Below are positions 945 through 34,020 of a stretch of 64,000 bases of DNA, in pieces (position 1 is the first letter of the stretch; the number at the start of each line of letters is the position of its first letter). The notes below the pieces were generated by a model. That model was not told the DNA's origin and searched no databases. It worked only from the letters and a program-made list of their open reading frames with translations. The translations under genes and the position numbers were made by a program. This DNA is from an archaeon (lineage in GTDB: Archaea > Nanobdellota > Nanobdellia > Pacearchaeales > GW2011-AR1), in contig DAHWKL010000001.1 of NCBI GenBank assembly GCA_027343665.1, positions 313,294 to 377,293 of the forward strand, in the 5' to 3' direction.

Positions 945-1883
945 ATGATTCAAAACGGCCTTATTGACTGGATAAATCAAAATCTCAAAAGAGGGATTGA
1001 TACTAAATCTATAGAAGATGAACTTGCGAATTCAGGATGGAAAATAAAAGACATTCGCGACACAATAAAATACGCACAGGAGATAAACCAAAACGAACCT
1101 GAAACAACCTCATTAATGTTCAGTTCAAGAAAAACCTGGGTATATGCTTCACTTCCGGTAATTTTCATTGCTGCAGGAATATTTATCTTCTTTATCCTGA
1201 CAGTCCCCCATGTCCAATATAGTGCAGGCCAGATTTCAAATGGTATCAATGTAAACCTTGCACAGGGGAAAAACACAACTTTTGCGGTGGATAATCAGCA
1301 GCATACAATAGAAGTGAACTCTGTAGGCACGGATTCAGCAATTATTATAATACATAGCAACCCCCTAATTTTAAATCTGACCGTCGGAGAGACACAAGAA
1401 GTGGATCTGAACAGCGATGGGATACCTGATATAATTGTGAAACTTGTCAGCATAAACAATGGAGTGCCAAATATTTACATACAAAAGATCAAAACAGGCT
1501 GTACGGAAAACTGGCAATGCGGCAACTGGAGCGGATGCGAACCCGACGGAAAAGAGATAAGAGAATGCACAGATGTCAATTCATGCGGAACAAACAAGAA
1601 TATCCCCCAAACTGAAAGAATCTGTGGCAGCATCCATACTCAGGCTAATGGGAACTCCGCAATAAACAGGAATTTTTCTTTAAATGCGACGGGGAGCAAT
1701 AAGTCCATTAATTTTTCAGCGAGAGTCAACGCAAGCTTAAACCAAAGCAAGGTTAATATGACAAATTACCTGAACCAAACAGCAAACGTAAACCCTGAAA
1801 AGAGCGCGAATCAAACAAATAATTCCATAAATTCAAAGATGGAAGATAATAATATTTCAAAAAGCGTAAATTCCTCAGGATGA
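945..1883 (+). CDS. membrane-anchored surface protein with cytoplasmic N-domain, single TM, Cys/Trp repeat module and Asn/Ser-rich sequon-dense tail
   Basis: 312-aa ORF; hydrophobic helix around residues 66-88; repeated CxxxWxCxxWSGC...C motifs; C-terminal run of N-x-S/T sequons. Confidence 0.55.
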   Translation: MIQNGLIDWINQNLKRGIDTKSIEDELANSGWKIKDIRDTIKYAQEINQNEPETTSLMFSSRKTWVYASLPVIFIAAGIFIFFILTVPHVQYSAGQISNGINVNLAQGKNTTFAVDNQQHTIEVNSVGTDSAIIIIHSNPLILNLTVGETQEVDLNSDGIPDIIVKLVSINNGVPNIYIQKIKTGCTENWQCGNWSGCEPDGKEIRECTDVNSCGTNKNIPQTERICGSIHTQANGNSAINRNFSLNATGSNKSINFSARVNASLNQSKVNMTNYLNQTANVNPEKSANQTNNSINSKMEDNNISKSVNSSG

Positions 1884-2088
1884 TCATCAGCTCTCAAAAT
1901 TCAACGGATGCAAACGTACTCATCTACGCCCCTGTAAATATCACCTGACCTGTCATAATCAATCTTGAAAAAAGAGAATTCTTTATGATGAAATCAGAAG
2001 ATTAGAATCTCACATCCGTTGAGAATATTCCAATAATATCTTTTCTTTCTATTGAAATATTTATAAATATAAAAATCTTTGAAAAGAA

Positions 2089-2901
2089 ATGAAAGAGGTG
2101 TCCTATAATATTAGCAAAAAGGGCCAGGTGACTATGTTTGTCATAATCGCTCTGGTTATAGTTGTTGCGGGGATCCTCATATATTTCTTTGTTCCCGGGA
2201 TAAAAACAACTTCAATCCAATCACAGGAAGATCCTGTCGCATATTTTCAAAATTGCGTTCAGGGGAATCTGAGTTCAAATGTTCAGACTGTCAGCATGCA
2301 GGGAGGAAGCATGAATCCTTCTTCAAGCATAATGTACTTGGGAAACAGGGTGGCGTATCTTTGCTATAACAGCCAGCCATACGCTGCTTCAGCGACGCAG
2401 ATGTGCATGCCCCAGGTCGCATTTTTAACTTCGCACATAGAACAGGAACTGAAGAAAAGCATGACTTCGACAGTGGAAAATTGCTTTTCAGAGATGCAGC
2501 AGGATTACACCTCAAAAGGATATAATGTAAATCTCCAATTAGGCAACTTCAGTGTTAGTCTCCTTCCTAACAGAATGCTCCTTCACAGCAACACACAACT
2601 TACATTGACGAAAGGCTCTCAGAAATATTACAATTCATTTGATGCGGTTTTGAACAATAATCTTTATGAACTAGCAGGTGTTGCAAGTACAATAGTGGGC
2701 TGGGAGCAGGCTTACGGGGATGCTGACCCTGCTTATTTCATGACATATTATCCGGATCTTGTGATAACGAAGAACATCCAAAGCGACTGGACAAAAGTCT
2801 GGGTGATAAAAGAAGCGAACACAGGAAATGAATTTGAATTCGCAGTAAGGAGCATAAACTGGCCTCTTGGAATCCCAACGCCGTCAAACCAATCATCATG
2901 A
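2089..2901 (+). CDS. pilin-like protein with archaeal class III (prepilin-type) signal peptide
   Basis: N-terminus SKKGQ followed by a ~22-residue hydrophobic helix; 270 aa; stop overlaps the start of the next gene. Confidence 0.5.
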   Translation: MKEVSYNISKKGQVTMFVIIALVIVVAGILIYFFVPGIKTTSIQSQEDPVAYFQNCVQGNLSSNVQTVSMQGGSMNPSSSIMYLGNRVAYLCYNSQPYAASATQMCMPQVAFLTSHIEQELKKSMTSTVENCFSEMQQDYTSKGYNVNLQLGNFSVSLLPNRMLLHSNTQLTLTKGSQKYYNSFDAVLNNNLYELAGVASTIVGWEQAYGDADPAYFMTYYPDLVITKNIQSDWTKVWVIKEANTGNEFEFAVRSINWPLGIPTPSNQSS

Positions 2902-4724
2902 AAAAAAGAGGAATAACAATAATTCTTGCATTTGTCTTAGTCTTTACTTTCCTGATCCTTAATATCCATAACGCTGCAGCCGCAGGTAATGTCTGCTGTG
3001 AAAAATTGAAGACAAATTCCGACGGAAGTGGAGGACAATTTTGCATGATGGCTCCGCAGAGTTCATGCAATCTGAGTGATGGATACCAGTCTGCTCCGAC
3101 TTCATGCGGGGCCACGCAATTTTGCCAGATAGGGACATGCGTTGGGAGTTCTTCCATACCCAGCCAAACGGGACAATGTACTTCTGGCGTAAGCAGGATA
3201 GTTTGCCAAAATGATGGAGGATATTGGGAGTCTCAATCACCTTCACAATTGCAACAATGTCAACTCGGGTGCTGTTACATAGGAACAACCTCCGCACTTT
3301 TCACAACACAAGTGGCATGTAAACAAGAAGCTTCAACGCAAGGAGTGAGCACAAATTGGGACAGTTCAATCACATCAGAATCAACATGTCTTGCAAGTGC
3401 AGGCGGAGATACAAAAGGCGCATGCGTTTATCAGACAGGCGGAGAAAGGACATGCACCATGACCACAAAGACAGGATGCACAAATCTGCAATCAAACGGA
3501 AGTGTTTCTTCACCGATATTTTATCCAAATGATTTATGCTCAAATGAAAATCTTCATACAAACTGCGGACCTTCAAAACTAACAACCTGTGTTCCGGGAC
3601 AAGATGCAGTTTACTTTGTAGACACGTGCGGAAACATTGCAAATGTATATGATGCAAGCAAAGTGAATGACCTTTCATATTGGCAGACAATAATACCTAA
3701 GAGTGAATCATGCGGAAACACCACAAGCAATGCGAACAGCGTTTCATGCGGAAACTGTGACTTTGGACTCGGAAGCACATGCGCACCTTATCAAAGGGGC
3801 ACGGACCCCGTGCAACCAACATACGGAAATTATATATGCAAAAGCCTTAGTTGTAATTACCAAGGAAAAACTTATCAGCAGGGAGAATCATGGTGTGCTC
3901 TCACACCCGGAACAACAACGATAACTGACCAGAACCAAAACGGAAGTTATACTTTTGGCACTTCAAATTCAGCAATACCCAACGATGCAACAACGAACCT
4001 TCCGGGATCAGTGTATGAAAAACTCACATGCATGAACGGACAGGTTACCCCTACTTTCTGCGGTGATGGCCGCCAACAGATATGTGTTCAAGATAGTGTT
4101 CCAACTGCAAATGGCGGAACTTTCAGCAATGCAGCATGTGAACTGAACAAGTGGCAGGATTGTTACAACCAAACAAGCCAGTCTGCCTGCCTTGACAGAT
4201 CAAAGAGAGATTGCCAATGGTTATCAGGAAACTCTCAGGGACTAAATTACACTTACAATTCTCAAAGCACACAAGGAACAACAAAAGGTGCTTGTGCACC
4301 ATTATTTGCGCCGGGATTCGACTTCTACAATGGAAGCGGAAACGGCGACGGAATAAGTGCACTTGGAACAATTGTATGCCAATACAAAGTAACCAAGAGT
4401 ACAGTTGGGGGACGCAGTATAGACAAAGGGAGCGAGTGCGTTTATCTTGATAATGGAGTGATAAAAATATTACCTTCATGGGTTCAAGCAATGAATACAA
4501 GATGCACATTGATAGGAGATAGCGGGCCAAAAGAGAATTATTTAGGTCTGCCAGGGCAGATGCAAATAATTGCTGAAAAAGTCTTCGGCAACAATGTAAC
4601 TGCAGAATATGTCAAGGCAAATGGAAACGGAACAATATTCGATGTGAATGACAAAGGTGTCGGGGCATCATATTCAAGCTGGACTAATTTCGTCAAGAAC
4701 ATAGTTGGAGCACAGATAAGATGA
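2898..4724 (+). CDS. large secreted cysteine-rich protein (608 aa), candidate adhesin
   Basis: N-terminal KKRG + hydrophobic signal/anchor; dozens of Cys across the length; many N-glycosylation sequons; ATGA overlap with upstream and downstream genes. Confidence 0.6.
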   Translation: MKKRGITIILAFVLVFTFLILNIHNAAAAGNVCCEKLKTNSDGSGGQFCMMAPQSSCNLSDGYQSAPTSCGATQFCQIGTCVGSSSIPSQTGQCTSGVSRIVCQNDGGYWESQSPSQLQQCQLGCCYIGTTSALFTTQVACKQEASTQGVSTNWDSSITSESTCLASAGGDTKGACVYQTGGERTCTMTTKTGCTNLQSNGSVSSPIFYPNDLCSNENLHTNCGPSKLTTCVPGQDAVYFVDTCGNIANVYDASKVNDLSYWQTIIPKSESCGNTTSNANSVSCGNCDFGLGSTCAPYQRGTDPVQPTYGNYICKSLSCNYQGKTYQQGESWCALTPGTTTITDQNQNGSYTFGTSNSAIPNDATTNLPGSVYEKLTCMNGQVTPTFCGDGRQQICVQDSVPTANGGTFSNAACELNKWQDCYNQTSQSACLDRSKRDCQWLSGNSQGLNYTYNSQSTQGTTKGACAPLFAPGFDFYNGSGNGDGISALGTIVCQYKVTKSTVGGRSIDKGSECVYLDNGVIKILPSWVQAMNTRCTLIGDSGPKENYLGLPGQMQIIAEKVFGNNVTAEYVKANGNGTIFDVNDKGVGASYSSWTNFVKNIVGAQIR

Positions 4725-7036
4725 AATCACAAACAAAGAAAATAGCACTCACGGAGATAATAATATTGTTAGTCGGAGTTTTCGCATTTGTGTGGCTGAT
4801 AAATGGCGTACCGAGTGTGAGTGCAAGTGGAGGACCAAGCAGTTCAAAACCCTCTTGTCCAGGATTAGAACCTTACTGTTATAATCCTGCAACACAAACC
4901 TGTGCGGGATCATTTAGTCAGAATGATGTAAATTGCCCTGCCCCTTGGTGCTGCTCAGTACAGCCCAAGGCAATACAAACAGGAGGGACATCAGGAGGGA
5001 CAACTAACTCCCCTTTGTCTCCTGTTGAAGGTATGGGATTCACAGTAGGAGGAAATGTTTTGTCTAATTATATTGGAAAGTTTGTGGTTCCACAAACTGC
5101 CCCTGAAACAGCAAAAGAGATAGCAGCGGAGAAGGCAGCTGAAACACCAAAGGTACCTCAAACTACTACAAATGTGCAGCCCAATAGCCCTCCAAGCTTT
5201 TGGTCAAACTTAGGTTCAACAACTGCAGACGTCGCGGCAGCCGCAACATTTGCATATATAGGACATCTTGCATTTACAGCAGCAGCAAAAGGGCTCAAGG
5301 CAAATCAATACTGGACAAATGGACTCAATGCAATTGGAACCGGTCTGGGAGCTGGAGGCGGACTGGCTTTAGGAATGACTCTTTTACCTTCCTCATGGCT
5401 CACTACAATAAGTGCACCTTTTGCCACGCTTTTAGGAGTTAGTTCAGCATTAGGATTGGGAATTGCTGTTGCGGCAGCAGTCGCTATTACATCTTGGCTT
5501 TTCTCAAGCAGTACAATAGAACAAGGAGCTGTCGTCTATTATTGCAACCAATGGCAGCCTGTCCCGGGCGGACAAAATTGTGATTTGTGCAACCATCAAA
5601 CTGTCCCTTGTTCACTTTACCAATGTAAGAGCTTAGGACAATCATGTGCATTCTCACAGAGCAACGCTTCAAATGGAGGAGCATCATTCTGTTATTACCA
5701 AAACCCACATGACATAAATCCTCCGATAATGACTCCCAATACAAATGCTCTAACGCCAGGATTCATTTATCAAAACTCAACTGCAGCTTCACCTCCTGAC
5801 AGAGAGGTCAAGATAATATATACAAACGATCAGGCAGGATGCGTGCCTGCTTTCAGCACAGTGACTTTTGGGGTTAACACAAATGAATATGCTGCTTGCA
5901 AGATAAGTTTCAACAGAACAGATTCTTATGGAAATATGGCGACTTACATAGGAGGAAGCGGGCTTAATTTAAATCACACCCAAGTTCTCAAAATACCTTA
6001 TATAAATACAAGCATAGGCCAATCGAATGTCATATCTGCATATGTAAGATGCCAGGATGCAAATGGAAATGCCGACGTCGGAAATTTCGTATTCCAGATG
6101 TGCGTGCAGAAAGGACCTGATTTAACTCCTCCTGTCATCGACTCAACAAACATCTTGAACAATACTGCCCTTGTTTCAGGGGTGCAGAATGTCAGTGTAA
6201 ATTTCAATGTAAACAAGCCTTCATATTGCAGGTGGTCTTATGACCCTGGAACTGAATATGACAGCATGCAGAACAATATGAGCTGTGTAAATGATACGAC
6301 TCAGTTGAATGGCGTCCTGGATTATACCTGTGCCGCAAATTTAAGTCTTACAAGCACAACGCCCGGGAAGAAAACTTATTTCTATGCCAAATGCCGTGAC
6401 ATGACTCCCACTCAAAACACAAATACTCAGGATTATGTATATGCACTTTCATCTTCACAGCCACTTGTCATAAAGAGTGTTTCACCTAATGCAACAACGA
6501 TATCTAATTCTGGATCTATAACCCCTGTCACAATAACAGCAACAACAATAGGTGGAGTAAACAACGGAAACGCCTCGTGCACTTATATTGACAACAATAA
6601 TCCTTCAGCGGGAGGTGTACCTTTCGCAAACACCCCTTCATATCAAAGTTCAACAACTGTATATGACAGCACAGGAGCACAAAGCTATAACATAACTTGC
6701 ACAGATGATGCCGGAAATTCAGATACAAAGACAATAAATTTCAATGTCAATCTCGACAACACCCCTCCGGTCGTCACAAGGGTATATTATAATAACGGAC
6801 AGATGGAGATAACCACAAACGAACAGGCAATGTGTGAATACATGACGGGGAATAATTGTGATTATTACTTTGGACAGGGAACTAACATATCAAGCTCCAA
6901 CGGAGGGAAAATACATGAGTTCCCATGGAATACTGCAACAGACCTTTCAGTTAAATGTGAAGACGCTTATGGAAATCTCCCTACTGCCGGAACATGCAGC
7001 ATCGTTGTAAGGGCATACGGAAATCAAAGCAGCTAA
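4721..7036 (+). CDS. large cysteine-rich surface protein (771 aa) with N-terminal anchor, Gly/Ala-rich hydrophobic block and repeated beta-rich extracellular domains
   Basis: N-terminal hydrophobic helix; Cys-rich segment; ~100-aa Gly/Ala-rich multi-helix hydrophobic region; two repeats beginning TPPV... with conserved Cys pairs. Confidence 0.6.
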   Translation: MKSQTKKIALTEIIILLVGVFAFVWLINGVPSVSASGGPSSSKPSCPGLEPYCYNPATQTCAGSFSQNDVNCPAPWCCSVQPKAIQTGGTSGGTTNSPLSPVEGMGFTVGGNVLSNYIGKFVVPQTAPETAKEIAAEKAAETPKVPQTTTNVQPNSPPSFWSNLGSTTADVAAAATFAYIGHLAFTAAAKGLKANQYWTNGLNAIGTGLGAGGGLALGMTLLPSSWLTTISAPFATLLGVSSALGLGIAVAAAVAITSWLFSSSTIEQGAVVYYCNQWQPVPGGQNCDLCNHQTVPCSLYQCKSLGQSCAFSQSNASNGGASFCYYQNPHDINPPIMTPNTNALTPGFIYQNSTAASPPDREVKIIYTNDQAGCVPAFSTVTFGVNTNEYAACKISFNRTDSYGNMATYIGGSGLNLNHTQVLKIPYINTSIGQSNVISAYVRCQDANGNADVGNFVFQMCVQKGPDLTPPVIDSTNILNNTALVSGVQNVSVNFNVNKPSYCRWSYDPGTEYDSMQNNMSCVNDTTQLNGVLDYTCAANLSLTSTTPGKKTYFYAKCRDMTPTQNTNTQDYVYALSSSQPLVIKSVSPNATTISNSGSITPVTITATTIGGVNNGNASCTYIDNNNPSAGGVPFANTPSYQSSTTVYDSTGAQSYNITCTDDAGNSDTKTINFNVNLDNTPPVVTRVYYNNGQMEITTNEQAMCEYMTGNNCDYYFGQGTNISSSNGGKIHEFPWNTATDLSVKCEDAYGNLPTAGTCSIVVRAYGNQSS

Positions 7037-7155
7037 ATTCCTTCTCTCTAAAAGTTGTTATAGATCTTATCTGATTATTTTGGCAAATTCAAAAACATGA
7101 CTTGCCCAGATCAAATTTTCCATAAATTTAAAAATTAAAATACACTGAAGAGGAT

Positions 7156-7578
7156 ATGGATAAAAAAAGAGGGCAGCTGAATCTGTCTTTCGGGATGATA
7201 TTCTCGATAATACTCATCATCGTATTTTTAGGAGCAGCGTTTTATGCAATACAGCAGTTCTTATCTTTCCAAAGCAACCTCCAGACGCAGAAATTCTACA
7301 GCTCACTCCAGTCTGATGTGAACACTGCATGGACAAGCACAGAAGCTTCAACTCCTGCGACTTACATTGTCCCTTCTGGTGTAAAACAAGTATGCTTCAC
7401 AAATAATCAGAACGGAAATGTGTACTTTGTGGAAAAGATCCCTCAACTCGGGCAATACATTGATCACCTGAATATAACGAAAGATTATTGCGAGAATGTA
7501 ACAAATGGAAAAGTGCAATTTTTGATTCAAAAAAATTTCGGCGAACCTCTTGTGAACGTCAGACCGGTGGGAGCTTAA
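7156..7578 (+). CDS. type IV pilin-like protein (class III signal peptide)
   Basis: N-terminus MDKKRGQ followed by a hydrophobic helix, matching the archaeal [KR]G[Q] prepilin pattern; 140 aa. Confidence 0.6.
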   Translation: MDKKRGQLNLSFGMIFSIILIIVFLGAAFYAIQQFLSFQSNLQTQKFYSSLQSDVNTAWTSTEASTPATYIVPSGVKQVCFTNNQNGNVYFVEKIPQLGQYIDHLNITKDYCENVTNGKVQFLIQKNFGEPLVNVRPVGA

Positions 7579-7589
7579 GCTTCTGAAAA

Positions 7590-8537
7590 ATGCCAAAGAA
7601 AAAAACCTATGCAAAAAAAATAAGCTTCAGGAAAAAAGGATTTCTTGATCTGCCGTTTTCATGGATTTTCGCTTTAATCGTCGGAGCGATAATACTTTTT
7701 GGAGCAATATACTTTGCGACAAGAGCATCCAACGTTGCAAGCACAGCTTCATCAGCTCAGGCAGGGGCTTCACTTGTCAATCTCCTTTCCCCACTTGAAA
7801 ACGGGGTCGGATCTGCAAATATGATAACAATAACTCTCCCCTTGAATTCAAGAATAGACCATCAGTGCAGTTCGTTCGGAAACTTCGGAAAAGATACGTT
7901 ATCTGTAGATCAGTTCATAAACGGCAAATGGGGCGGAACCGAAGTGAGCATATCTTCACAAAATAAATATATCTTCTCCCCGGTATTTTTCCAGGGAAAA
8001 ACATTCAATGTATTCTCAGAACCATTTAATCTGCCATTCAATGTGGCAGACCTTATGTATATGACAAATGCACAGACCAAATATTGCTTTGTCAACATGC
8101 CTTTGAGTTCAGAAACAGCACTCATGAATTTGAACCAAAATAATTTTGAGTTCAGCACCTGCTCTGGAAACGCTACAAAGATATGCTTCAACTCAAATTC
8201 AAATTGCGATATCAATGTCAACACAAATGCGGGAACAGTAGAAAAAAGCGGATCCATAATGTATTTCGAAGGAGATGCACTCATGTATGCGGCGATATTT
8301 TCGGACAAAAGCATATATGAATGTGAGCTCGGAAGGCTCATGAAAAGAACCTCTTCCCTGACTGATATATATCTGGAAAAAGCCACAATACTCCAAAAAG
8401 AAGGTTGCACCCCCCAGACGAATTTTGCCGGATTCCAGAATTCACTTAATGGCTACAATAGTTCAGAAGATATATTCACTGTTTCAAATTATGCAAACCA
8501 GCTTGAAAACGGAGGTTATCAGTGCAATTTATGGTAG
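7590..8537 (+). CDS. pilin-like protein (class III signal peptide)
   Basis: Basic N-terminus ending RKKGF then a hydrophobic helix; 315 aa; contiguous with neighbouring pilin-like genes. Confidence 0.5.
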   Translation: MPKKKTYAKKISFRKKGFLDLPFSWIFALIVGAIILFGAIYFATRASNVASTASSAQAGASLVNLLSPLENGVGSANMITITLPLNSRIDHQCSSFGNFGKDTLSVDQFINGKWGGTEVSISSQNKYIFSPVFFQGKTFNVFSEPFNLPFNVADLMYMTNAQTKYCFVNMPLSSETALMNLNQNNFEFSTCSGNATKICFNSNSNCDINVNTNAGTVEKSGSIMYFEGDALMYAAIFSDKSIYECELGRLMKRTSSLTDIYLEKATILQKEGCTPQTNFAGFQNSLNGYNSSEDIFTVSNYANQLENGGYQCNLW

Positions 8538-9046
8538 GAAAAAAAGGACAGATAAAAATACAACAAATGATATTTCTAATACTTGGCCTCACAATATTCT
8601 TTGTTATAGCCGGGCTGTTCATCCTTTCAATGCTGCTTTCAGGGCTGAAATCTTCACAAACGATGACAAGCGAACAGCAGGCGACACTTTTGGTGGAAAG
8701 TCTTGCAAACTCCCCTGAATTCGCCTGCGGAAGCACTTTTGGAACCCAAAGGACAGACTGCATAGACATGGACAAAGCATTTGCGTTAAAAGATCAGGCA
8801 ACAAAATATCAGCAATTCTGGGATGTCCAGGGAGTTGAGATTCAAAGACTTTATCCAGAAACAAACTTCAGCATCGAATGCACAAATGAAACTTATCCCA
8901 ATTGCGGACGTATGACAATACTCAACGGGACAAGCGGAACGGAATATTCCGCATATGTATCTCTTTGCAGGAAATACGAATCGGAAAATTCATCTTACAA
9001 TAAATGTGAACTGGGAGAACTTTCAGTGAGGGTTTCAAATGGATAA
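8522..9046 (+). CDS. type IV pilin-like protein (class III signal peptide)
   Basis: N-terminus MVGKKGQ followed by a hydrophobic helix; 174 aa; overlaps the upstream gene. Confidence 0.6.
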   Translation: MQFMVGKKGQIKIQQMIFLILGLTIFFVIAGLFILSMLLSGLKSSQTMTSEQQATLLVESLANSPEFACGSTFGTQRTDCIDMDKAFALKDQATKYQQFWDVQGVEIQRLYPETNFSIECTNETYPNCGRMTILNGTSGTEYSAYVSLCRKYESENSSYNKCELGELSVRVSNG

Positions 9047-9503
9047 AAAAGCACAATCTGAACTTGTGGGATTTGCAATAATAGTCATAATCGTGTCTCT
9101 TATAATCCTTATATTTGTCGCCATTTCCCTTCAGCAGAAACCTGAGACGGTCCAAAGTTACCAAACAGAGTCTTTTGTGCAGTCGATTCTGCAATACACA
9201 ACAACTTGCCAGGAAAACGGAAATTATGAGTCTTATCTTGACCTTATAGAACTTTGCGGGCAGGGAGGAACATGTGATAATGGAACAAGCGCATGCAGTT
9301 CTTTGAAGTCAATCTCTAAAAGTCTTTTAGACAGCTCATGGCAGACCGGAAGTAAATACCCTGTCAAAGGTTACCAGTTTCTTATAAATTATGCTGGAAA
9401 TTATATAATAAACGAAACCAAAGGGAACCTTACGCTGCAAAGCAAAGGCTCAAACCAAGTTTTCAATGGGAACTTACAGATAACTTTCAAAGCATATTAT
9501 TAA
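9039..9503 (+). CDS. type IV pilin-like protein (class III signal peptide)
   Basis: N-terminus MDKKAQ followed by a hydrophobic helix; 154 aa; overlaps the upstream gene. Confidence 0.55.
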   Translation: MDKKAQSELVGFAIIVIIVSLIILIFVAISLQQKPETVQSYQTESFVQSILQYTTTCQENGNYESYLDLIELCGQGGTCDNGTSACSSLKSISKSLLDSSWQTGSKYPVKGYQFLINYAGNYIINETKGNLTLQSKGSNQVFNGNLQITFKAYY

Positions 9504-9841
9504 ATCTTAAGGTGTATAACAACTTCATCAACAACAATTTTGGGTTTATGCCTCTGGCGATTGTTGACCTTTTCTTTCACTATCTCCAAGAAACCGAATC
9601 TCTCAAGAAGCTTGACATCATCAATCACTGCCTTGAAAGGTCTGTCGAGTATTTTTGTGAGATCATAGATAGATGAGGGTTCCTTATATTTCACAACATC
9701 AAGAAGTTTTGCTTTTTCCCTTGAAAGAAGTTTCCTTAATGAAGAGAGGCTCTCAAAGTCATACTTATCCTTTCCCCTTAAGAACCTGAATGTTCCCTCA
9801 GTGTCTTTTATAGTGACCTCTCTTACCCTTATTTTTACCAT
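9500..9841 (-). CDS. putative winged-helix DNA-binding protein
   Basis: 113-aa ORF; central segment fits a helix-turn-helix plus wing pattern; transcribed divergently from the surface-protein gene. Confidence 0.4.
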   Translation of the reverse strand: MVKIRVREVTIKDTEGTFRFLRGKDKYDFESLSSLRKLLSREKAKLLDVVKYKEPSSIYDLTKILDRPFKAVIDDVKLLERFGFLEIVKEKVNNRQRHKPKIVVDEVVIHLKI

Positions 9842-10030: not shown

Positions 10031-10242
10031 AAAATTTGTTCTCTCTATTACACTCAATTGAGGGTGGTCTTATAGGGAATAAGCCCATGCATTTGCAAGA
10101 CACGAATGCGGGCATAATGCTCTATAAGTGCTGGGAAGTTCCCCTATAGCTTTTCAGCAAAGACTTCGATTGCCTTAGGCGGTCGGGAAGGCCAAAAGCT
10201 TTCCAACCAGAGAGGTAAAAAGGAGGATAAAAGAAAAACAAA

Positions 10243-12558
10243 ATGAAATTAAGTTTCAAAAAGATCTCAGCAGTTCTTGGCTCAGTAATAATGGCCGGAG
10301 CGACTTTGGGACTTGCTGCTGCAGCAAATTACCCACAACCTTTCGTAACAACGAATGGTGTGGCAAATGTAGCTGTAGTATATGGTGCTAATTCACCAGG
10401 GGGAGCAGGCGGAAACGATGCTGTCCAGGCAGGTATGGTTGCAAACTCCTTAGGAACATATGTTAAGGGAGGAACAACAAATATCTCAGGTGAAAATGTT
10501 CTTCTCCAAATGCCTTCATCCTACCTACACGTAGGTAACGGAATAGATCAGGTTTTTGGAAGATCTGTAACAAAGAGCGATATGCCAACTTTGTTAGCTG
10601 ATGGCACTTACCAAGACTCTCAAAACAGTGACCACACATACACTCAAAAGATTGATGTGGCTAACTTGACTCTCCAGCAATTTGACCTTGAACAGTTTGA
10701 CTCTAATGTAACTTCAACTACTCCTTCAATAGGATTCCCATTGAGCTCTGGAGCTAATGTATTGAATTATACATTAACTTTCACAAGCCCAGTTAATGCA
10801 AGTTTGATGCAGTACACTAACCTTAACCTTATGGGTTCAAGTTATTACGTGCTTTCAGCTACTACCAGTTCATTGACACTTTTAGACTCTGCAGCAACTG
10901 CAAGTCTTAGCAATGTCGGAAGTTCAACTACATTAAATGTGGGAGGAACAACTTATGCTGTAAGTGTTGCTTATGTAGATTCAAGCAACGTAAAGCTTAC
11001 AATCAATGGTCAAACAACAGACACATTGCAAAAAGGAAGCACTTACAAATTAAATGACGGCTCTTATGTCGGTATAAAAGACATATTAGCTCAAAACTAT
11101 CAAGGCGGAGCAAGTGAAGTGGACTTTAGCATTGGTGCAGGAAAGATTATCCTGACCAGTGGACAGAATGTCCAAGTGGGCACAAATTCCGTTAGCGGAG
11201 TTACATCCACTATAGGAGTTACTAGCAACAAGATATCAAACATATCTATCCAATGGGATACAGGAGACACAGGCGCAATCACACAGAGTATGCCTTTGGC
11301 TATGCCAGCATTTGACGGTGTTAAATTAACATTTGGTGGGATGACCTATCCAAAGAGTGAAAACACAACAGTAACAAATGATGGGAATACAGCAGTCAAA
11401 GTATCAACAACTTTGGAAGGCGGTTCTGTTTCATTAGATGTCCTTGGAATAGACAAGACAACTGGGAACTTCACTACAATCGGACAAGATTCAAACAACT
11501 TGTTAGTCACGAACAATTCAGTGTACCTGAATAAGGTCCACCAGAATAGTGAGTTTGTGATTTCGGGAAACAGCGGTAAAGTCGCTGAGTCACATGTATA
11601 TAAAGTGACAAGTTTCTCAAACACAACAGAGAATGGGCTTCAAGTTATATTGACTGATGAGGCTAACACTGCAAACCAGGTTACATTGACTAACAACCAA
11701 GCTAGTTCAGTAGGAGTTAACACAGGAATAACCTTGACTCCATCTATCGACTATGCCGCAAAGAATGTAAGCTTCACAGCAGGCGGAACCGGAGCAAATT
11801 TCGCTACCCTTTACACAAATGATGGGTTAAAGATGGCTCTTCCAACTTCTGTGCATGTTAATGGTAATTCGAGCAAACCTACAGTCCAATCTTACAACCT
11901 TCAGTTCACTGAAGCTGATAAGAACGGAAATATTGCATCTGGAAACAAATTCAATATAACCGTAGGAAGTGTTGGATCAACAACAAAGCAGACTTCTGTA
12001 ACAGGAGTCAGCGGTGCAGGTAACGCAGTAGAGGTAGGGAACACAAACGTGTATGATTACACAGTAGCTTCTCCACTTGCAACTGCTATATCCTACAACC
12101 AGGGACCAACACAGGAAACTGCTGCATTGGTATACCACGGCGGTGAATCTTATGGCCAGCTTTACTTAGCATCTCCAAGTGCAACCATCTCAGGTGGTAG
12201 CGCATTAGGAAATGTTTTAGTAACTGACAGTGAAGTTTCATCCGTTTCAGGAAAAGACTTAGTGATTGTTGGTGGTAGCTGTATTAACTCAGCTGCTGCA
12301 ACTGCATTAGGTGTTCCTTACGGAACTTGTGGCGATGCTTTCACAGCTGCTACAGGTGTTGGATCAGGACAATTCCTTATAAAGGGAGTTAGCGGAGTAC
12401 TAAGTGCTCCATTAGCTTTAGTTGTCGCTGGTTATGATGCTGCTGACACAGTTAACGCTGTAACTTACTTGACTCATAACACTGTTGATACTTCAAGTAC
12501 CTACAAAGGAACTTCAGGTACACAGGCAACGATGCAAGTAGCTAACAGCTCTGCTTAA
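10243..12558 (+). CDS. putative S-layer / major cell-surface protein
   Basis: 771 aa; typical signal peptide (hydrophobic stretch then AAAA); Thr/Ser/Gly/Asn/Val-rich and Cys-poor; strong SD (AAGGAGGAT); followed by a poly-T terminator. Confidence 0.6.
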   Translation: MKLSFKKISAVLGSVIMAGATLGLAAAANYPQPFVTTNGVANVAVVYGANSPGGAGGNDAVQAGMVANSLGTYVKGGTTNISGENVLLQMPSSYLHVGNGIDQVFGRSVTKSDMPTLLADGTYQDSQNSDHTYTQKIDVANLTLQQFDLEQFDSNVTSTTPSIGFPLSSGANVLNYTLTFTSPVNASLMQYTNLNLMGSSYYVLSATTSSLTLLDSAATASLSNVGSSTTLNVGGTTYAVSVAYVDSSNVKLTINGQTTDTLQKGSTYKLNDGSYVGIKDILAQNYQGGASEVDFSIGAGKIILTSGQNVQVGTNSVSGVTSTIGVTSNKISNISIQWDTGDTGAITQSMPLAMPAFDGVKLTFGGMTYPKSENTTVTNDGNTAVKVSTTLEGGSVSLDVLGIDKTTGNFTTIGQDSNNLLVTNNSVYLNKVHQNSEFVISGNSGKVAESHVYKVTSFSNTTENGLQVILTDEANTANQVTLTNNQASSVGVNTGITLTPSIDYAAKNVSFTAGGTGANFATLYTNDGLKMALPTSVHVNGNSSKPTVQSYNLQFTEADKNGNIASGNKFNITVGSVGSTTKQTSVTGVSGAGNAVEVGNTNVYDYTVASPLATAISYNQGPTQETAALVYHGGESYGQLYLASPSATISGGSALGNVLVTDSEVSSVSGKDLVIVGGSCINSAAATALGVPYGTCGDAFTAATGVGSGQFLIKGVSGVLSAPLALVVAGYDAADTVNAVTYLTHNTVDTSSTYKGTSGTQATMQVANSSA

Positions 12559-12728: not shown

Positions 12729-13331
12729 ATGATAAAAAAAATAGAATCAAAAGCTGACAAGGAAAAAAAGGAGAAAAGAAACCAGCTAGTTCTTGCAGGA
12801 ATCCTTATAGTAGTAATGCTTTTTTCGATATTCGGAATAGTATTTCAGTATATAGGGGGATCAGGCGGAACAACAAGCTCACAGAATCCGACAATAAATT
12901 ATAAAGGACTGACTTTCCAGGAATCCAACGGTTATTATGTCCTGCAGTCCGGAAGTTCATCTTTTTATTTTTCAGTAAATCCGCAGTTCGCCGGGAATGC
13001 CACAGATAATATATTCATAAACAAAACACTTGCGGATTATTCTGGGCAGGTCGTTTATGTCTCCTCCCCTTATGATTATAATTCATACAACGAGATATAT
13101 AATGACTTATCTAACTATACTTTAAGGGTGCAGGGAGCATGCGCTGTGAATGAAACCTGCCTCGATAAAACACTCCCGACAAAAGACTGCACAAGTAATT
13201 TGATAGTAATCAAGAATGCAACGATGAACCAAATTTATCAAAAAGGAAATTGCATTTACATAGAAGGAAACACCAATGACCTGCTTAATCTCACTGATGA
13301 GTTCCTTCTTCATATATTAGGGATAAACTAA
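12729..13331 (+). CDS. membrane-anchored extracellular protein (hypothetical)
   Basis: 200 aa; Lys/Glu-rich N-terminus then one TM helix; paralogous in architecture to the next gene. Confidence 0.5.
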   Translation: MIKKIESKADKEKKEKRNQLVLAGILIVVMLFSIFGIVFQYIGGSGGTTSSQNPTINYKGLTFQESNGYYVLQSGSSSFYFSVNPQFAGNATDNIFINKTLADYSGQVVYVSSPYDYNSYNEIYNDLSNYTLRVQGACAVNETCLDKTLPTKDCTSNLIVIKNATMNQIYQKGNCIYIEGNTNDLLNLTDEFLLHILGIN

Positions 13332-13343: not shown

Positions 13344-13985
13344 ATGCCAAAAGAAGAGAAAGAGGATAATGGAAAAAAAGTAAGGGAAGAATCCAAAAGA
13401 GAAAATAAAATCTTGATGATAACCTTAATAGTGATAGGTATAATCATTGTTGCAGGGATAGTCTATTTCATATCAGCAGGCAAGGAACAGACAAGTTTCA
13501 ATTATGAAGGGATCAATTTTACAATAGAAAAAATCGGAAACCTGACTTTTTATGACACTGCAACACTTGCAACCTCTGCGGCCGGAACACCCTTCGGATT
13601 CAGGATAAGAACAAATCCTAATGAACTCAAAAATGTCCCCTTCTATGGCTCTGAAAATTTCAATTTTACCGCCTTCAACCTTTATAAGTTTGATAATGGA
13701 ACATTCAGCTGCAAAGGATATGGTGCTATATCAATTGCGAATCTTTACAGGACAATCACAGAGATGGGAATGCAATTCGTGAATGATCAGAATGCGACAT
13801 GCGATTCGCAAGGAAAGTACAATTTCTTCCTTCTCAAATACGGAAACGAAACGCAAGTCAAGCAGATAGGATACAATTGTTATGAACTCGAAATAAAAGG
13901 AAATGATTCTGAATGTGAGATACTTCCTGCGACTGAAAAGTTAATGGTGGATATGTATGCAAAATACATAAATTTATCAAGATAA
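13344..13985 (+). CDS. membrane-anchored extracellular protein (hypothetical; paralog-like to 12729-13331)
   Basis: 213 aa; same Lys/Glu-rich N-terminus plus single-TM layout. Confidence 0.5.
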   Translation: MPKEEKEDNGKKVREESKRENKILMITLIVIGIIIVAGIVYFISAGKEQTSFNYEGINFTIEKIGNLTFYDTATLATSAAGTPFGFRIRTNPNELKNVPFYGSENFNFTAFNLYKFDNGTFSCKGYGAISIANLYRTITEMGMQFVNDQNATCDSQGKYNFFLLKYGNETQVKQIGYNCYELEIKGNDSECEILPATEKLMVDMYAKYINLSR

Positions 13986-13986: not shown

Positions 13987-14463
13987 ATGAACCCCCTTGT
14001 ACTTGCGATAATACTCACAATAGTCCCGGTGATTGAACTAAGAGGAGGTCTGCCTGTTGCTTTAATCAACGCTTCAAAAGAGGGAGTCTCGCAGGGATTG
14101 GTCTTTCTGATAATAGTATCTTTAAATATTCTTATGATTTTTGCAGCTTTTTTCTTTCTTGATTATCTTCACAAATTTTTCCTCAACCTGAAAACATACA
14201 AAAAATTCTATGAGTTCACATTAAGGAAAATGCAGAAAAAGATTGACCATTTTGAAAAATCACATGACTCAATAGGCCTTTGGGCATTGTTTCTTTTTGT
14301 TGCAGTTCCACTTCCACTTACTGGAGCCTATTCGGGTGTCCTTTTATCATGGCTCTTCAATCTTCCGCGAAAAAAGAGCATAATTGCAATAGCCTGTGGA
14401 GTCCTTGTGGCAGGAATAATCGTCTATATCGGAACAATAGGGGTTACTTCTTTTTTAGGCTAG
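13987..14463 (+). CDS. small multidrug-export-like membrane protein
   Basis: 158 aa; 4 TM; VIELRGGLP and PLTGAYSG motifs as in the PF06695-type family. Confidence 0.45.
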   Translation: MNPLVLAIILTIVPVIELRGGLPVALINASKEGVSQGLVFLIIVSLNILMIFAAFFFLDYLHKFFLNLKTYKKFYEFTLRKMQKKIDHFEKSHDSIGLWALFLFVAVPLPLTGAYSGVLLSWLFNLPRKKSIIAIACGVLVAGIIVYIGTIGVTSFLG

Positions 14464-14980
14464 ACTTGCCATATATATATTTTATATCCGAATAAACAGG
14501 AATAGATCTTATCTTGAAAGCGACGACTTCATAGAACCAGATTCCTACAACAAGAATTGTGCTTCCTGCATACCAAAGGATTTCATGTGTAAGCTCAAAA
14601 AGAGAAGAATTGTTAACAAACATAATACCAAGTATCACAATCCTAATTATGTTTACAACAAGGAAGATCAGGAAGGAAAGGATTATCATTTTAACCCTTT
14701 TATACAATTTTATATCCGGCGTGGACAGATTAAGGATAAGCAAAAGGTAATATGCAGAACCTGCAACACAAGCACCGATTATATCAAGGTTCTTCGCCCC
14801 GATGAAGATTGTATTTCCGGAAACTATCGGATTGAAGAAGATTTCCAAAATATAAAGAACGGGATATTTCGTCAAAGGAAGAAAAAGATCATAAAAAAGT
14901 GCAAGACCGGGAATTACGACAGCAATGAGGATTATATATCTCAAAAATATGCCCAGAACTTTTTTTGAGTCATCTTTCAT
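14444..14980 (-). CDS. archaeosortase/exosortase-family transpeptidase
   Basis: 178-aa polytopic membrane protein with the conserved Cys (IGACVAGS) and Arg (NIIRI) context typical of exosortase/archaeosortase; lies next to a protein with a C-terminal sorting signal. Confidence 0.5.
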   Translation of the reverse strand: MKDDSKKVLGIFLRYIILIAVVIPGLALFYDLFLPLTKYPVLYILEIFFNPIVSGNTIFIGAKNLDIIGACVAGSAYYLLLILNLSTPDIKLYKRVKMIILSFLIFLVVNIIRIVILGIMFVNNSSLFELTHEILWYAGSTILVVGIWFYEVVAFKIRSIPVYSDIKYIYGKSSLKKK

Positions 14981-15030: not shown

Positions 15031-16674
15031 TTACCTTCTTCTTAAAATCTTTACCGCAACAAAGATTATTGCCACAAGGAGTATTATATTAAGAGCAACT
15101 ATTCCGACTAACTCCCAATTCACATTTGAACCTAAATTATTCCAGAAAGACCCCTGAGCAACATTTAATGAAACTTGTTTTTGAGAAACAATTTGCCCGT
15201 TAGATGTTATTATAAGATTAAAATTCTGTGCTCCCTGCACACTTGGATTTATAGCAAAGGTCATATAAAGATCTTTGGTAGATGATGGACTCAAGGTAAA
15301 TGTGCTGTCACTCATGTTTACAAGATTAGCCCATGAATTATACCCATTAGGAGCAAGAACAAAAGTTGCAGTTTGAGTGTCATTGTTTGTTACATAAGCT
15401 TGGATAGTAACTTCTTTACCAGCTTGTGCTTCACCAGATACTATTGTTGCACCGACGATAGGTGGGTTTATTGAACAACCTCCTGAAACATTCAGATAAA
15501 CTGTTTTCACAGCCTGATCGTTGTTGCTGCTCTCATAAAGATTGTTGTTATCATCATAAACGCTAAGCTGTATTCCGTAAATCTGCTGGTGAGCGTTTTT
15601 TGGAATCACGAAATTAGCTGAGAAATCCTGAGAACTAAAAGCACTTATGCTTCCAAGTTTTATAATCTGATTCAAACCTAATTTCTGATTATAAATAACA
15701 ACATAAGAACCACTTGGCTGATCATTACTCCCAATATTATAGATAGTTCCTGCAAGATTCACATTTGAACTGCATGAAACAGATCCATTTAGGGTATCTC
15801 CATTTTGAAGAATATTTCCATTCATAGTCACCTCGGAAGGCACCATGAAATCATCGCCAGTTTCAACATAGCCATCTCCGCTAACTGAAGAACATGTCTG
15901 ATTGCCATCATAGATTGAATTGACAGAGGTATCCCTTATTGTTCCGGTTGCTTTGACATAAAGCACAACATTTCCTCCCGAATTATCAATCCTATTCATC
16001 CCGTTATTGAGTGGGAAGTTTATGCTTACAGTTTTATCATTCCCTGAATTAAGGCTGAAAGTGTTCAGAGTTCCGCTATCTATTTTATTGCCATCAGTAG
16101 TATAAAGAGCCCACTGAACTTTTACATTTCTCAGATCATAATTTCCATTATTTTCAATATCTACCTTTGCAGTTATATTGTCTAAAAGGTACCATGTACT
16201 TGAATCCCCATAGCCACTTGTTATACTGAAATCCGGAGAATCAACACGAAGAATATTAACAACATTAGGTGTTCCTTGGCAGAAATTCGTGTTCTTGAAA
16301 TAGATTGTTCCGTAACTTACCCCATTCACCTTCAATGTTGTGGAATAAGAACTTGAATCAAGGAAGTTAAAATACCCATTTGGGTCTGAGACGCTATAAT
16401 TTACAGAAACCGACTTTGAAGATTTATTAAGAGAAAATGAATCGTTTGAAACCGTAAAACTGACAACACCAGTAGTGCCTTGTCCAGAAGTTATCTGGGG
16501 GATGGAGAGATTTACACTCTCACTTGTATTGCTTGAAATAGTTATTGTAAATTGCCCGCTTGATCCTGTGATTTGACTTGGAACTCCTGTTACTGTCAGA
16601 GTCGCACTTGCAAAGCTCATTAAAAACAAACTAGCAAAAACGAGCGCAAAGATTATACCTGTCTTCTTTTCCAT
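15031..16674 (-). CDS. secreted surface protein with C-terminal TM plus RRR sorting signal (candidate archaeosortase substrate)
   Basis: 547 aa; N-terminal signal peptide; Ser/Thr/Asn/Gly-rich; C-terminus ...LVGIVALNIILLVAIIFVAVKILRRR. Confidence 0.6.
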   Translation of the reverse strand: MEKKTGIIFALVFASLFLMSFASATLTVTGVPSQITGSSGQFTITISSNTSESVNLSIPQITSGQGTTGVVSFTVSNDSFSLNKSSKSVSVNYSVSDPNGYFNFLDSSSYSTTLKVNGVSYGTIYFKNTNFCQGTPNVVNILRVDSPDFSITSGYGDSSTWYLLDNITAKVDIENNGNYDLRNVKVQWALYTTDGNKIDSGTLNTFSLNSGNDKTVSINFPLNNGMNRIDNSGGNVVLYVKATGTIRDTSVNSIYDGNQTCSSVSGDGYVETGDDFMVPSEVTMNGNILQNGDTLNGSVSCSSNVNLAGTIYNIGSNDQPSGSYVVIYNQKLGLNQIIKLGSISAFSSQDFSANFVIPKNAHQQIYGIQLSVYDDNNNLYESSNNDQAVKTVYLNVSGGCSINPPIVGATIVSGEAQAGKEVTIQAYVTNNDTQTATFVLAPNGYNSWANLVNMSDSTFTLSPSSTKDLYMTFAINPSVQGAQNFNLIITSNGQIVSQKQVSLNVAQGSFWNNLGSNVNWELVGIVALNIILLVAIIFVAVKILRRR

Positions 16675-22496: not shown

Positions 22497-23201
22497 TCAT
22501 TCGAATAATCTGTCTGAAAGCTCTTTTAGTTTGGCGTTCCTTTCGGCAGAAATTTCGCCAAACTTCGGAAAATTTCTTTCAAGCCCGTATGCAATCGGCT
22601 TGAAAGCACCGTAAATAAGTTTGCATTCTGATACAATCATATCGGAATATAACTCGGGACGGGAGGAAACATCTATCATGTTCAGGCCATTTACTGGCCA
22701 GTCGTAATTGAATTCTCTTTTTATAGTCATCAGATGTTTTTGAAAGAATGATGCCTCAAGACTACCAAAATCGTGAGCAAAATCTCGATTAAGTTCATTA
22801 TTCAATCTCGAAATATCCAATTTCGAGCTTTTCAACCTTGAGAGAATCGCTGAGGAGATAAATTTTTTATCCACTTTGTGATTGTCTTTACTTGGATAAT
22901 CCAAATTAAATGAATACCCGAAACAGCCCTCATACCATTTTATACGAGGGTTAGAAGAACGATGCATGTGCAAAGAGATAAATTTATTCCCATCTATCTG
23001 ATAAATTAGTTGAAAATTCCCAGGCTCAGAAGGAAATTCTGTTTCTTGGACATGATTTAAATTAAGCTCTCCTGTAAAAAACCCATTTGCTCCCTTAGCC
23101 ACAATTTGGTAAAAAAAATCAACATATTCATCTTTACAGACTTTTTTATGATATTCTTCCAACTTTTTATCAATGAATTGGTCTATCTCCTCCTTGTTCA
23201 T
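22497..23201 (-). CDS. hypothetical protein (third gene of unknown operon)
   Basis: 234-aa ORF; 4-nt overlap with the upstream gene; no recognisable motifs. Confidence 0.5.
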   Translation of the reverse strand: MNKEEIDQFIDKKLEEYHKKVCKDEYVDFFYQIVAKGANGFFTGELNLNHVQETEFPSEPGNFQLIYQIDGNKFISLHMHRSSNPRIKWYEGCFGYSFNLDYPSKDNHKVDKKFISSAILSRLKSSKLDISRLNNELNRDFAHDFGSLEASFFQKHLMTIKREFNYDWPVNGLNMIDVSSRPELYSDMIVSECKLIYGAFKPIAYGLERNFPKFGEISAERNAKLKELSDRLFE

Positions 23202-23695
23202 CCTCTCTCTCCCCTAAGTGCCTCGACAATTTTTTTATAATCCTCATTGTCAGAAGTTATCGGGATGACCTTTTCAGGGATGCAATTTCCGAAGATAAGA
23301 TCGGCACCTCTACGATACCTATATCTAAAAATTCCTTCTACGTTTCTTTTGGCCCCGTGCAACTTCTCCCAAAAACCTGGAATCTTCACTCTTTCGCCAT
23401 AATCTTTCAGCAGCCAAAGGTTATCCACCACATACACTCCAAAGTATGGCCCAATCACCAAATGGTCCGGGAGAGGAATTGGAAGAATTGAAATGAGATC
23501 ATAACTCCCGAAAGAACCTTCCCCAAATCTGAATTTTTCTTTCTCAGCTATTGCTTCAAGAGCATTCATATCAAGATCATTAAAATTAATTTCTTCAAGC
23601 CTGAAGAGAGAATCAATATAAGGGAATAAATTTTCATTATCTATACTTTGTGTCATAGATTCAACTCCCCTGGAATAATATTGTTCTGTTTTCAT
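23198..23695 (-). CDS. hypothetical protein (second gene of unknown operon)
   Basis: 165-aa ORF; tight spacing with neighbours. Confidence 0.5.
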   Translation of the reverse strand: MKTEQYYSRGVESMTQSIDNENLFPYIDSLFRLEEINFNDLDMNALEAIAEKEKFRFGEGSFGSYDLISILPIPLPDHLVIGPYFGVYVVDNLWLLKDYGERVKIPGFWEKLHGAKRNVEGIFRYRYRRGADLIFGNCIPEKVIPITSDNEDYKKIVEALRGERG

Positions 23696-23724
23696 TTTTA
23701 AATCACTTTATTTTTGTCCTCCCA

Positions 23725-31137: not shown

Positions 31138-31214
31138 GTATCAGAGTGTAGGAAAGAATAAATAAAGGTTTCGGAAGGAATCAACCGATAAGTAGTGGAA
31201 CACGACATAAGAAA

Positions 31215-34020
<2,806 letters not shown>

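Follow-up and report, generated by a model that had tools for sequence, protein, structure and literature searches.

Archaeal type IV pilus loci of the Methanococcus type (clade 1 or 'system 1', Epd) carry at least five minor pilins, two large PilY-like proteins and EppA (PMC4858521), and the system has been reported in methanogens and in DPANN archaea (bioRxiv 10.64898/2026.04.22.720090). These loci are the closest described parallel to a gene cluster near the start of the DNA analyzed here, a window of 64,000 nucleotides (nt) from an archaeal contig (DAHWKL010000001.1, forward strand, positions 313,294 to 377,293). The cluster encodes five small prepilin-like proteins and two large cysteine-rich ones, which we designate by their lengths in residues, in gene order, as w270, w608, w771, w140, w315, w174 and w154 (Table 1). 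As in the Methanococcus-type locus, several small proteins with class III signals are encoded together with two large exported proteins, and the predicted cleavage sites have Q at +1, which is typical of Methanococcus pilins cleaved by EppA. The differences are considerable. No ATPase, no pair of platform genes and no EppA were found in or near this cluster, w608 and w771 lack DUF2341 or any other Pfam domain, the five small proteins do not match Class_IIIsignal (UPF0333) or another pilin model at the thresholds of those models, and w771 is polytopic in the membrane.

Bacterial minor-pilin and PilY1 operons, together with the type II secretion and Com sets, provide a further comparison, and an earlier note on this DNA, made from the letters alone, had likened the layout to the first of these. 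The likeness holds in that a tight block of four pilin-like genes plus a fifth, with likely translational coupling, accompanies a large Sec-dependent, non-prepilin protein (w608), which follows the adaptor-pilin-plus-large-protein logic of the PilY1 systems. It fails in that neither large protein shows a PilY1 domain or fold and w771 is embedded in the membrane. FimU, PilVWX, GspH-K and PilY1 are unrelated to the present proteins in sequence and fold, and the cleavage motif follows the archaeal pattern (G/A/S, then Q) and lacks a conserved Glu at +5. The w140 family includes modular members with extra C-terminal domains, as do bacterial type IV pili, for which functional domains grafted onto a pilin module ('modular pilin') are known (PMC8179133). 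A third group, the arCOG02884/COG4743/DUF1616 proteins and the SlaB anchors, resembles w771 in having few transmembrane (TM) helices, an extracellular array of immunoglobulin (Ig)-like domains and an association with a surface-layer (S-layer) gene. The resemblance is one of kind and not of family, as w771 has no match to DUF1616, possesses a conserved Cys-rich knob and is partnered with pilin-like genes. The MoxR ATPase, vWA and arCOG01314 genes of the predicted arCOG02884 system are absent at this cluster, and the 'novel secretion system' that they define (Makarova et al., PMC5898192) was rejected as a home for w771 on that ground. According to the consulted parts of Makarova, Wolf and Koonin 2019 (PMC6393860), the predicted pilus components of some DPANN genomes can be recognized only by their signal peptides and context, having no detectable similarity to those of other archaea. 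Divergent, unrecognizable DPANN pilins were anticipated there in general terms; the seven-gene architecture, the w608 and w771 families and their fusion were not found described in those parts. The 'dark matter' pilin loci that they treat contain an ATPase and TadC, neither of which was found at our cluster. They also list a DPANN-specific secreted family, cls.004306 (NEQ255), often encoded beside S-layer-like proteins.

We give about an even chance to the interpretation that the cluster is a conserved, DPANN-specific seven-gene surface module, in which a divergent accessory set of a pilin-based type IV filament is joined to a disulfide-rich w608/w771 surface complex, the assembly machinery being encoded elsewhere. 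Eight co-directional open reading frames (ORFs) with overlaps of 4, 4, 16 and 8 nt had been described in the earlier note, and both the coordinates and the overlaps were confirmed; six of the eight products are present in a public protein collection with identical ends, which indicates that independent gene callers agree. The eight genes do not form one operon, as had been proposed. The first ORF, whose product has no Pfam or NCBIfam family, recurs at this position in only 4 of 85 related loci and was ruled out as a member. The conserved unit comprises seven genes in two sub-operons, w270-w608-w771 (A) and w140-w315-w174-w154 (B).

The conservation of this unit was assessed by a scan with the w608 alignment over one genome per species. 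Relatives of w608 were found in 499 species genomes (499 stretches), of which 80 loci were fetched; with five more from an exact look-up (85 in all), these gave 81 non-redundant DPANN loci, whose gene order was determined by ORF calling and BLAST against the window proteins. The recurring order is PCNA, an optional pair of a w270-like gene and a gene for a protein of 1200-1400 residues, then w270, w608, w771, w140, w315, w174 and w154, followed by an HVO_A0114-type gene on the opposite strand, an S-layer-like gene, w200 and w213. The seven genes are uninterrupted in 34 of the 42 loci that extend to the 3' end of the cluster. The other eight mostly carry inserted toxin-antitoxin or other small genes. 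In two related loci, L001 (12333-14090 and 16098-16657) and L002 (12206-12810), the insertions within or beside the cluster comprise genes of toxin-antitoxin type (PemK accompanied by an RHH protein; a PIN gene next to a small ORF) and other small genes, which shows that the two sub-operons tolerate separation. A w270-like gene is followed directly by a w608-type or fusion gene in 112 of 112 cases, with a median gap of 2 nt. The median intergenic distances along w270 to w154 are 2, 22, 130, 1.5, -7 and -7 nt; w174 overlaps w315 by 16 nt in the window and by a median of 7 nt among orthologs. The gap between w771 and w140 is the only consistently long one (median over 43 loci). This sole regular break, together with the TATA-like boxes before w270 and w140, suggests two tandem transcription units, with translational coupling likely within the cluster.

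The N-termini of the five small proteins carry the central evidence. The motifs ahead of the hydrophobic stretch read KKGQ (gene at 2089), KRGQ (7156), KKGF (7590), KKGQ (8522) and KKAQ (9039). The pattern of a basic N-terminus and a hydrophobic helix, which had been proposed for all five, is present in each; the gene at 7156 reads R-G-Q and not K-G-Q. For each family, 25-95 distinct orthologs were aligned by an internal landmark and the residues around the predicted cleavage point were tallied, the counts for w174 being limited to orthologs with the QQM anchor and those for w154 to orthologs with the VGF anchor. The ortholog N-termini came from a first-ATG ORF caller, and some sequences were excluded from the counts. 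In most sequences position -3 is K and position -2 is K or R. Position -1 is G, A or S in every sequence of four families, and G or A in 30 of 34 orthologs of w315. Position +1 is Q in w270 (95/95), w140 (36/40), w174 (32/32) and w154 (25/25), and F, Y or Q in w315; in the w174 and w154 orthologs, +3 is likewise invariant, as K and E, respectively. The helix that follows is conserved in a family-specific manner: QVTIF.IIA in w270, Q.K[LI]SFGMIFSIILII in w140, [FY]L.ISF.W.FA in w315, Q.K[IV]QQMAF in w174 and Q[ES]EMVGF in w154. All five have the short basic segment, the charged residue at -2, G/A(/S) at -1 and the hydrophobic helix of about 20 residues directly after it. The class III prepilin pattern recognized in the window alone thus extends across the orthologs, and judged from sequence the N-termini have the architecture of class III (prepilin-type) signal peptides throughout each family.

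Several further observations bear on this assignment. In contrast to w608, the five small proteins all lack a signal-peptidase-I site behind the hydrophobic helix. The number of invariant cysteines is even in each family (2, 4, 4, 6 and 8), as expected for extracellular, disulfide-bonded heads. As a control for chance we applied a loose rule that asks for [KR][GA] within 40 residues, followed by a stretch of 18 residues whose mean hydropathy is >=2.0; it was passed by 8 of the 88 window ORFs of at least 100 residues; six of these eight lie in this 7.4-kb stretch. The N-terminal 80 residues of w140 and w315 are homologous (hhalign probability 96.7%, E 4e-10), and other pairs of small families align only over the signal region. 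The w140 family is a large one: clustering at 90% identity gives 317 clusters, and at 50% identity there are 1103 representatives (E <=0.001). A few of its members are named 'UPF0333 family' by the Joint Genome Institute, the designation of the Methanococcus class III signal-peptide protein family, which agrees with the Q at +1. Modular relatives of w140 carry a C-terminal polysaccharide lyase 14 (PL14) domain, once together with a GDSL esterase, and these grafted enzyme domains suggest that the w140 module is a unit of surface display. For w154, weak sub-threshold NCBIfam matches to bacterial prepilin-type N-termini (PRK10506, ComGC) were obtained at E ~0.02-0.07. Matches to DUF7248, Tag1_N and MASE4 were rejected as sub-threshold and confined to the hydrophobic helix. 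Away from the cluster, at 46393-46962 (- strand), a stand-alone protein of 189 residues without a Pfam or NCBIfam family has a class-III-like N-terminus (MIKKSSKG/AMEMSVGTIVTIVLLV, the slash marking the predicted cleavage point) and weak N-terminal similarity to w140 orthologs (E ~1e-4); it is followed by a 108-residue protein with two TM helices at 46952-47278 (- strand). It could be a further, possibly major, pilin-like subunit.

Both large proteins lie between the w270 gene and the block of four. The N-terminus of w608 has an h-region that is not conserved and a VSA-type site just before an invariant CCEK, and is therefore an ordinary Sec signal peptide. The idea of w608 as a sixth prepilin was rejected, as its RG varies among orthologs and these carry plain signal peptides of the Sec type. 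About 35 cysteine columns are invariant over 43 diverse homologs. The structure predicted by AlphaFold2 is reasonably confident and beta-rich and has no structural match in the Protein Data Bank (PDB), and neither Pfam/NCBIfam scans nor fold searches revealed an enzyme signature; on the model, we conclude that w608 has no recognizable known fold. The description of the two large proteins as Cys-rich and secreted is apt for their cysteine content (39 and 27) and for the export of w608. It is not apt for w771, which is not simply secreted and has hydrophobic helices at ~165-262. The w771 N-terminus consists of a conserved helix (..IAL[ST][QE]I.IL..G.FAF.W) and a VSA-type site. A variable Cys-rich, low-complexity segment follows, then a Gly/Ala-rich hydrophobic hairpin (~165-262) and a conserved C-terminal part of 500 residues, confidently modeled as a Cys-rich knob (275-345) and 4-5 Ig-like beta-sandwich domains. 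Foldseek retrieved for w771 only generic Ig, fibronectin type III and cadherin arrays or ectodomains, adhesin stalks and S-layer proteins. In ~15 of 39 w771 orthologs K[KR]G precedes a conserved Q/E by six residues; conservation does not extend to the small residue, and the VSA site and further membrane helices are present. Prepilin-type cleavage of w771 is therefore doubtful, and we lean against it. The tip-adhesin role that had been proposed for the large proteins does not suit w771, an integral membrane protein whose Ig-like array does not fit a free pilus-tip adhesin.

No Pfam or NCBIfam match above noise was obtained for any of the eight products, and w608 and w771 gave no PilY1, DUF2341, vWA or significant beta-propeller match. 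The top fold-search match, the fusexin Fsx1, was non-significant and was rejected, no three-domain class II fold with a fusion loop being seen; the beta-propeller matches, noted since PilY1 has a propeller, were non-significant and were rejected as well. The statement that the large proteins lack obvious characterized relatives is thus supported by both sequence and fold searches, which found no enzyme match either. The optional upstream paralog is informative on how the two proteins relate. In 38 of the 81 loci, 42 ORFs of more than 1000 residues (typically 1200-1400) were found, which combine in order a w771-type N-terminal helix, a w608-like domain, the hydrophobic hairpin and a w771-type C-terminal array. 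Such a Rosetta-stone fusion indicates that w608 and w771 act together. As it joins w608-like and w771-like ectodomains, these should be located on the same side of the membrane, which calls for an even number of helices in the hairpin.

Under the reading as a filament-based surface module, an archaeal prepilin peptidase would cut the five small proteins after the G/A/S residue, and the Q at +1 points to a peptidase of the EppA-like type. The five proteins would assemble via their N-terminal helices into a short fiber or a priming or tip complex, comparable to what is formed by the minor pilins, four or five in number, of bacterial type IV pili and type II secretion, or by those of the Methanococcus Epd pilus. 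A FlaI/FlaJ-type ATPase and platform encoded elsewhere in the genome would drive the assembly. In this scheme w270 would be the adaptor that couples the w608/w771 ectodomain complex to the fiber, w771 would hold the complex in the membrane, and w608 with the Ig-like array of w771 would constitute the exposed, probably ligand- or host-binding part. It is the location and context of w608 that suggest a binding role for it, as a probably exposed part of the complex. Contact between cells, or with a host, would be the likely role in these host-attached, genome-reduced archaea. A far bolder version would make the cluster a previously unrecognized, lineage-defining host-contact organelle of Pacearchaeota and Woesearchaeota, in which a short, type-IV-filament-like piston of five dedicated pilins presents or drives the disulfide-locked w608/w771 complex into the host envelope, the Gly/Ala-rich hairpin being similar in composition to viral fusion peptides, and so builds a cell-cell bridge by which these metabolically minimal archaea would feed. 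We regard this version as very improbable; if it were true, the two large families would represent a new class of membrane-engaging proteins, as opposed to passive adhesins.

The conservation of the motif, its clustering in the window, the absence of signal-peptidase-I sites, the tight coupling of the genes, the homology of w140 and w315 and the fusions favor the filament-based module, as do the UPF0333 name of some w140 homologs, the enzyme domains on members of the w140 family and the precedent of the Methanococcus-type loci; we count on the same side the likeness of the w771 Ig-like array to adhesin stalks and surface-layer proteins. A number of points weigh against it. Pfam and NCBIfam pilin or class III models (Class_IIIsignal, archaeal Pilin_N, archaellin, archaeal pilin N-terminal), taken to E of 0.1-1, matched neither the five proteins nor their orthologs (30-41 scanned per family), and profiles of the five families found no meaningful match, and no solved pilin, among all PDB sequences. 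The strict FlaFind-type hexamer, taken as [KRDE][GA][ALIFQMVED][ILMVTAS]x3, is passed by w270, and also by the non-conserved w608 N-terminus, and would be failed by the other four, which have a polar residue (N, D, K or E) at +3; EppA-type substrates of Methanococcus also carry polar residues at +3 and +5. Fold searches gave no adhesin or PilY1-like fold for w608. With at least three hydrophobic helices, w771 is unable to exit the membrane to serve as a filament subunit or tip protein. The earlier observation that no assembly ATPase, platform protein or prepilin peptidase is encoded in the window was corroborated: Pfam or NCBIfam scans of ~50 window ORFs found no T2SSE, T2SSF or A24 peptidase, and no reading frame of the window contains a GxTGSGKT Walker A motif. 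Nor does a T2SSE Walker A motif occur within 10 kb of the cluster in any of the 81 related loci. A groundwater study describes Pacearchaeota as unusually firmly host-attached and type IV pilus components as missing in DPANN genomes (preprint 10.1101/2020.05.14.094862), its search having probably been for bacterial pil genes. The literature is divided on the machinery: in favor of the filament-based module, FlaI, FlaJ and FlaK homologs have been annotated in metagenome-assembled genomes (MAGs) of Woesearchaeota and Nanoarchaeota (PMC8407392, PMC11606122), and the firm host attachment of Pacearchaeota speaks for it too. Finally, with its near-universal presence and its fixed order beside an S-layer gene, the cluster resembles a housekeeping part of the envelope more than an accessory pilus. 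Taken with the lack of an ATPase within 10 kb, these features are as compatible with a core structure of the envelope as with an accessory pilus for adhesion.

The main rival builds on this last point. It proposes a non-filament envelope complex linked to the S-layer, in which the basic-G/A-Q N-termini are anchors, processed or unprocessed, and the seven proteins make up a membrane-attached scaffold for anchoring, spacing or assembling the S-layer encoded by the neighboring gene. The stalk would be w771, in a role like that of SlaB-type anchors or the arCOG02884 Ig-like 'S-layer' proteins, and the small proteins would be bindosome-like accessory subunits. The fixed synteny with the S-layer gene and the HVO_A0114-type regulator (36-38 loci) supports it, and the 499 species genomes with relatives suggest a core function. 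The setting in an envelope island, including pacearchaeosortase and its putative PACE-CTERM S-layer target, agrees with it, as does the failure of the Walker A search at every locus. An association with the S-layer has been predicted for archaeal membrane proteins that combine 2-4 TM helices with extracellular Ig-like domains (PMC5898192). The membrane helices and Ig-like array of w771 conform to that plan, and the fold search with w771 retrieved solved S-layer proteins along with numerous other Ig arrays. Surface proteins other than pili, such as the sugar-binding proteins of Sulfolobus, also use class III signals. However, a proof of a physical link to the S-layer is not given by synteny alone, and w771 matches neither Pfam DUF1616 (COG4743) nor any S-layer model. 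The N-terminus itself also tells against the envelope complex: peptidase-processed pilin-type subunits have as their hallmark just such an invariant small residue at -1 and Q at +1, placed immediately ahead of the helix, for whose conservation plain anchors offer no obvious reason, and the strong conservation of the helix in each family is that expected for helix-helix packing in a fiber. On balance we deem this complex a serious but unlikely alternative.

The pilin-like proteins could also serve a pseudopilus similar to that of type II secretion, a five-protein piston that pushes Sec-exported cargo (w608, or enzymes such as PL14 lyases) through the S-layer and is not an adhesive fiber. The GspG-K and ComGC-GG sets have their counterpart in the five distinct pilin-like genes, of which four form a single tight block; Sec-exported w608 is always coupled to a pilin-like gene, and enzyme domains are attached to members of the w140 family. 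Against such a piston, the locus has no secretion ATPase or platform, w608 has no enzyme signature, the membrane-anchored w771 is left unexplained, and to our knowledge no archaeal analogue of type II secretion has been demonstrated. We consider it improbable. Even less credit can be given to the view that the five genes encode ordinary single-pass signal-anchor proteins whose likeness to prepilins is coincidental, in a cluster of unrelated surface proteins. The failed pilin models, the strict hexamer failed by four of the five and the machinery not found in the window would all be explained by it. It would not explain a motif conserved position by position in 25-95 orthologs per family and concentrated in this single cluster, or a gene order and translational coupling kept across dozens of species.

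Pacearchaeota and Woesearchaeota are among the most widespread uncultured archaea, with minimal genomes and an apparently host-attached life, and no attachment apparatus has been defined for them. With its order kept in dozens of species-level genomes, its signature protein in 499 and its place beside an S-layer gene, the cluster is an obvious candidate for the missing surface machinery, and Pfam and NCBIfam hold no model for any of its seven families. Should the five small proteins be true prepilins, a distinct split-locus variant would be added to the repertoire of archaeal type IV filaments, with the two large, Cys-rich families of novel fold and their natural fusion as concrete targets for further work; otherwise, the cluster nonetheless marks out an unknown core complex of the envelope in a major lineage of archaea.

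Table 1. Features of the cluster and its surroundings. Positions are those of the window; a slash marks the predicted cleavage point.
Feature	Position	Strand	Description	Basis or remarks
ORF 1	945-1883	+	single-pass membrane protein, not in the module	extracellular CxxxWxCxxWSxC...C motif; Asn-rich tail, 15 N-glycosylation sequons
TATA-like box (tttataaata)	2061-2070	+	putative promoter of sub-operon A	read by eye, ~19 nt ahead of the w270 start codon
w270	2089-2901	+	270 residues, predicted class III signal (prepilin-like), 4 conserved Cys	N-terminus SKKG/QVTMFVIIALVIV; ortholog consensus K-[KR]-[GAS]/Q-V-T-I-F
w608	2898-4724	+	608 residues, Sec-exported, beta-rich, 39 Cys	AlphaFold2 model, pLDDT 78.6, pTM 0.54
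w771	4721-7036	+	771 residues, membrane-embedded, 27 Cys	alignment, hydropathy; AlphaFold2 model confident for 275-767
A/T-rich TATA-like element	7122-7137	+	putative promoter of sub-operon B	upstream of w140; read by eye
w140	7156-7578	+	140 residues, predicted class III signal (prepilin-like), smallest and most conserved of the five	KKRG/QLNLSFGMIFSIILIIVF; SFG.IFSI.LI nearly invariant
w315	7590-8537	+	315 residues, class-III-signal-like, 8 conserved Cys	RKKG/FLDLPFSWIFALIVGAIILF; ortholog consensus KKG/[FY]L[QDE]ISF.W.FA
w174	8522-9046	+	174 residues, class-III-signal-like, 6 conserved Cys	GKKG/QIKIQQMIFLILGL
w154	9039-9503	+	154 residues, class-III-signal-like, 4 conserved Cys	DKKA/QSELVGFAIIVIIV
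HVO_A0114-family protein	9500-9841	-	113 residues, winged helix, convergent with w154	same position in 38 loci; PF25212 HVO_A0114 recorded for orthologs
S-layer-like protein	10243-12558	+	771 residues, conserved downstream neighbor	orthologs at same position with Pfam S_layer_C; 36 loci; Sec-type signal peptide
Pacearchaeosortase	14444-14980	-		NCBIfam NF033505, 218 bits against a cut-off of 80
PACE-CTERM protein	15031-16674	-	putative S-layer protein, adjoins pacearchaeosortase	NF033506, 343 bits; signal peptide and C-terminal TM helix

The first 17 kb of the window is a cell-envelope island, which includes the S-layer-like gene, pacearchaeosortase and the PACE-CTERM protein. The HVO_A0114-type protein is 65% identical to its ortholog in L001 and is possibly a regulator of the cluster locus or of the S-layer gene. 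Between these two genes, at 10040-10225 (+ strand), a strongly structured non-coding element was identified, with a minimum free energy of -71.6 kcal/mol (z = -5.0 versus shuffles) and no Rfam match. Seven related loci have it immediately upstream of the S-layer gene, with a nucleotide identity of 77-92%, whereas the neighboring proteins are only ~50% identical. An alignment of eight sequences gave 33 consensus pairs, 6 of them with compensatory changes, and the element may represent a structured 5' leader or a small RNA not yet described. Two proteins of ~200 residues encoded downstream of the S-layer gene (12729-13331 and 13344-13985, both + strand) each combine a Lys-rich N-terminus with a single TM helix and an ectodomain that contains Cys. 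At that location they recur in 13 and 7 loci, and neither has a family match; with no G/A at -1, they were ruled out as prepilin-like.

The early assignment of the DNA to a DPANN-like archaeon is sound and can be narrowed to the Pacearchaeota type. Archaeal markers in the window are a 16S-tRNA(Ala)-23S operon, an archaeal RNase P RNA and six tRNAs; pacearchaeosortase is present, and the nearest relatives of every protein examined come from MAGs labeled Pacearchaeota, Woesearchaeota or Nanoarchaeota. Elsewhere in the window, a cytoplasmic-looking ORF of 1115 residues (38052-41399, - strand) and three consecutive ORFs at 22497-24402 (- strand) have no Pfam or NCBIfam match whatsoever. The rRNA operon is located at 31212-36044 (- strand), and 5S rRNA was not detected anywhere in the window. 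The tRNA-Thr(CGU) gene at 51671-51763 (+ strand) covers 93 nt and thus probably contains an intron.

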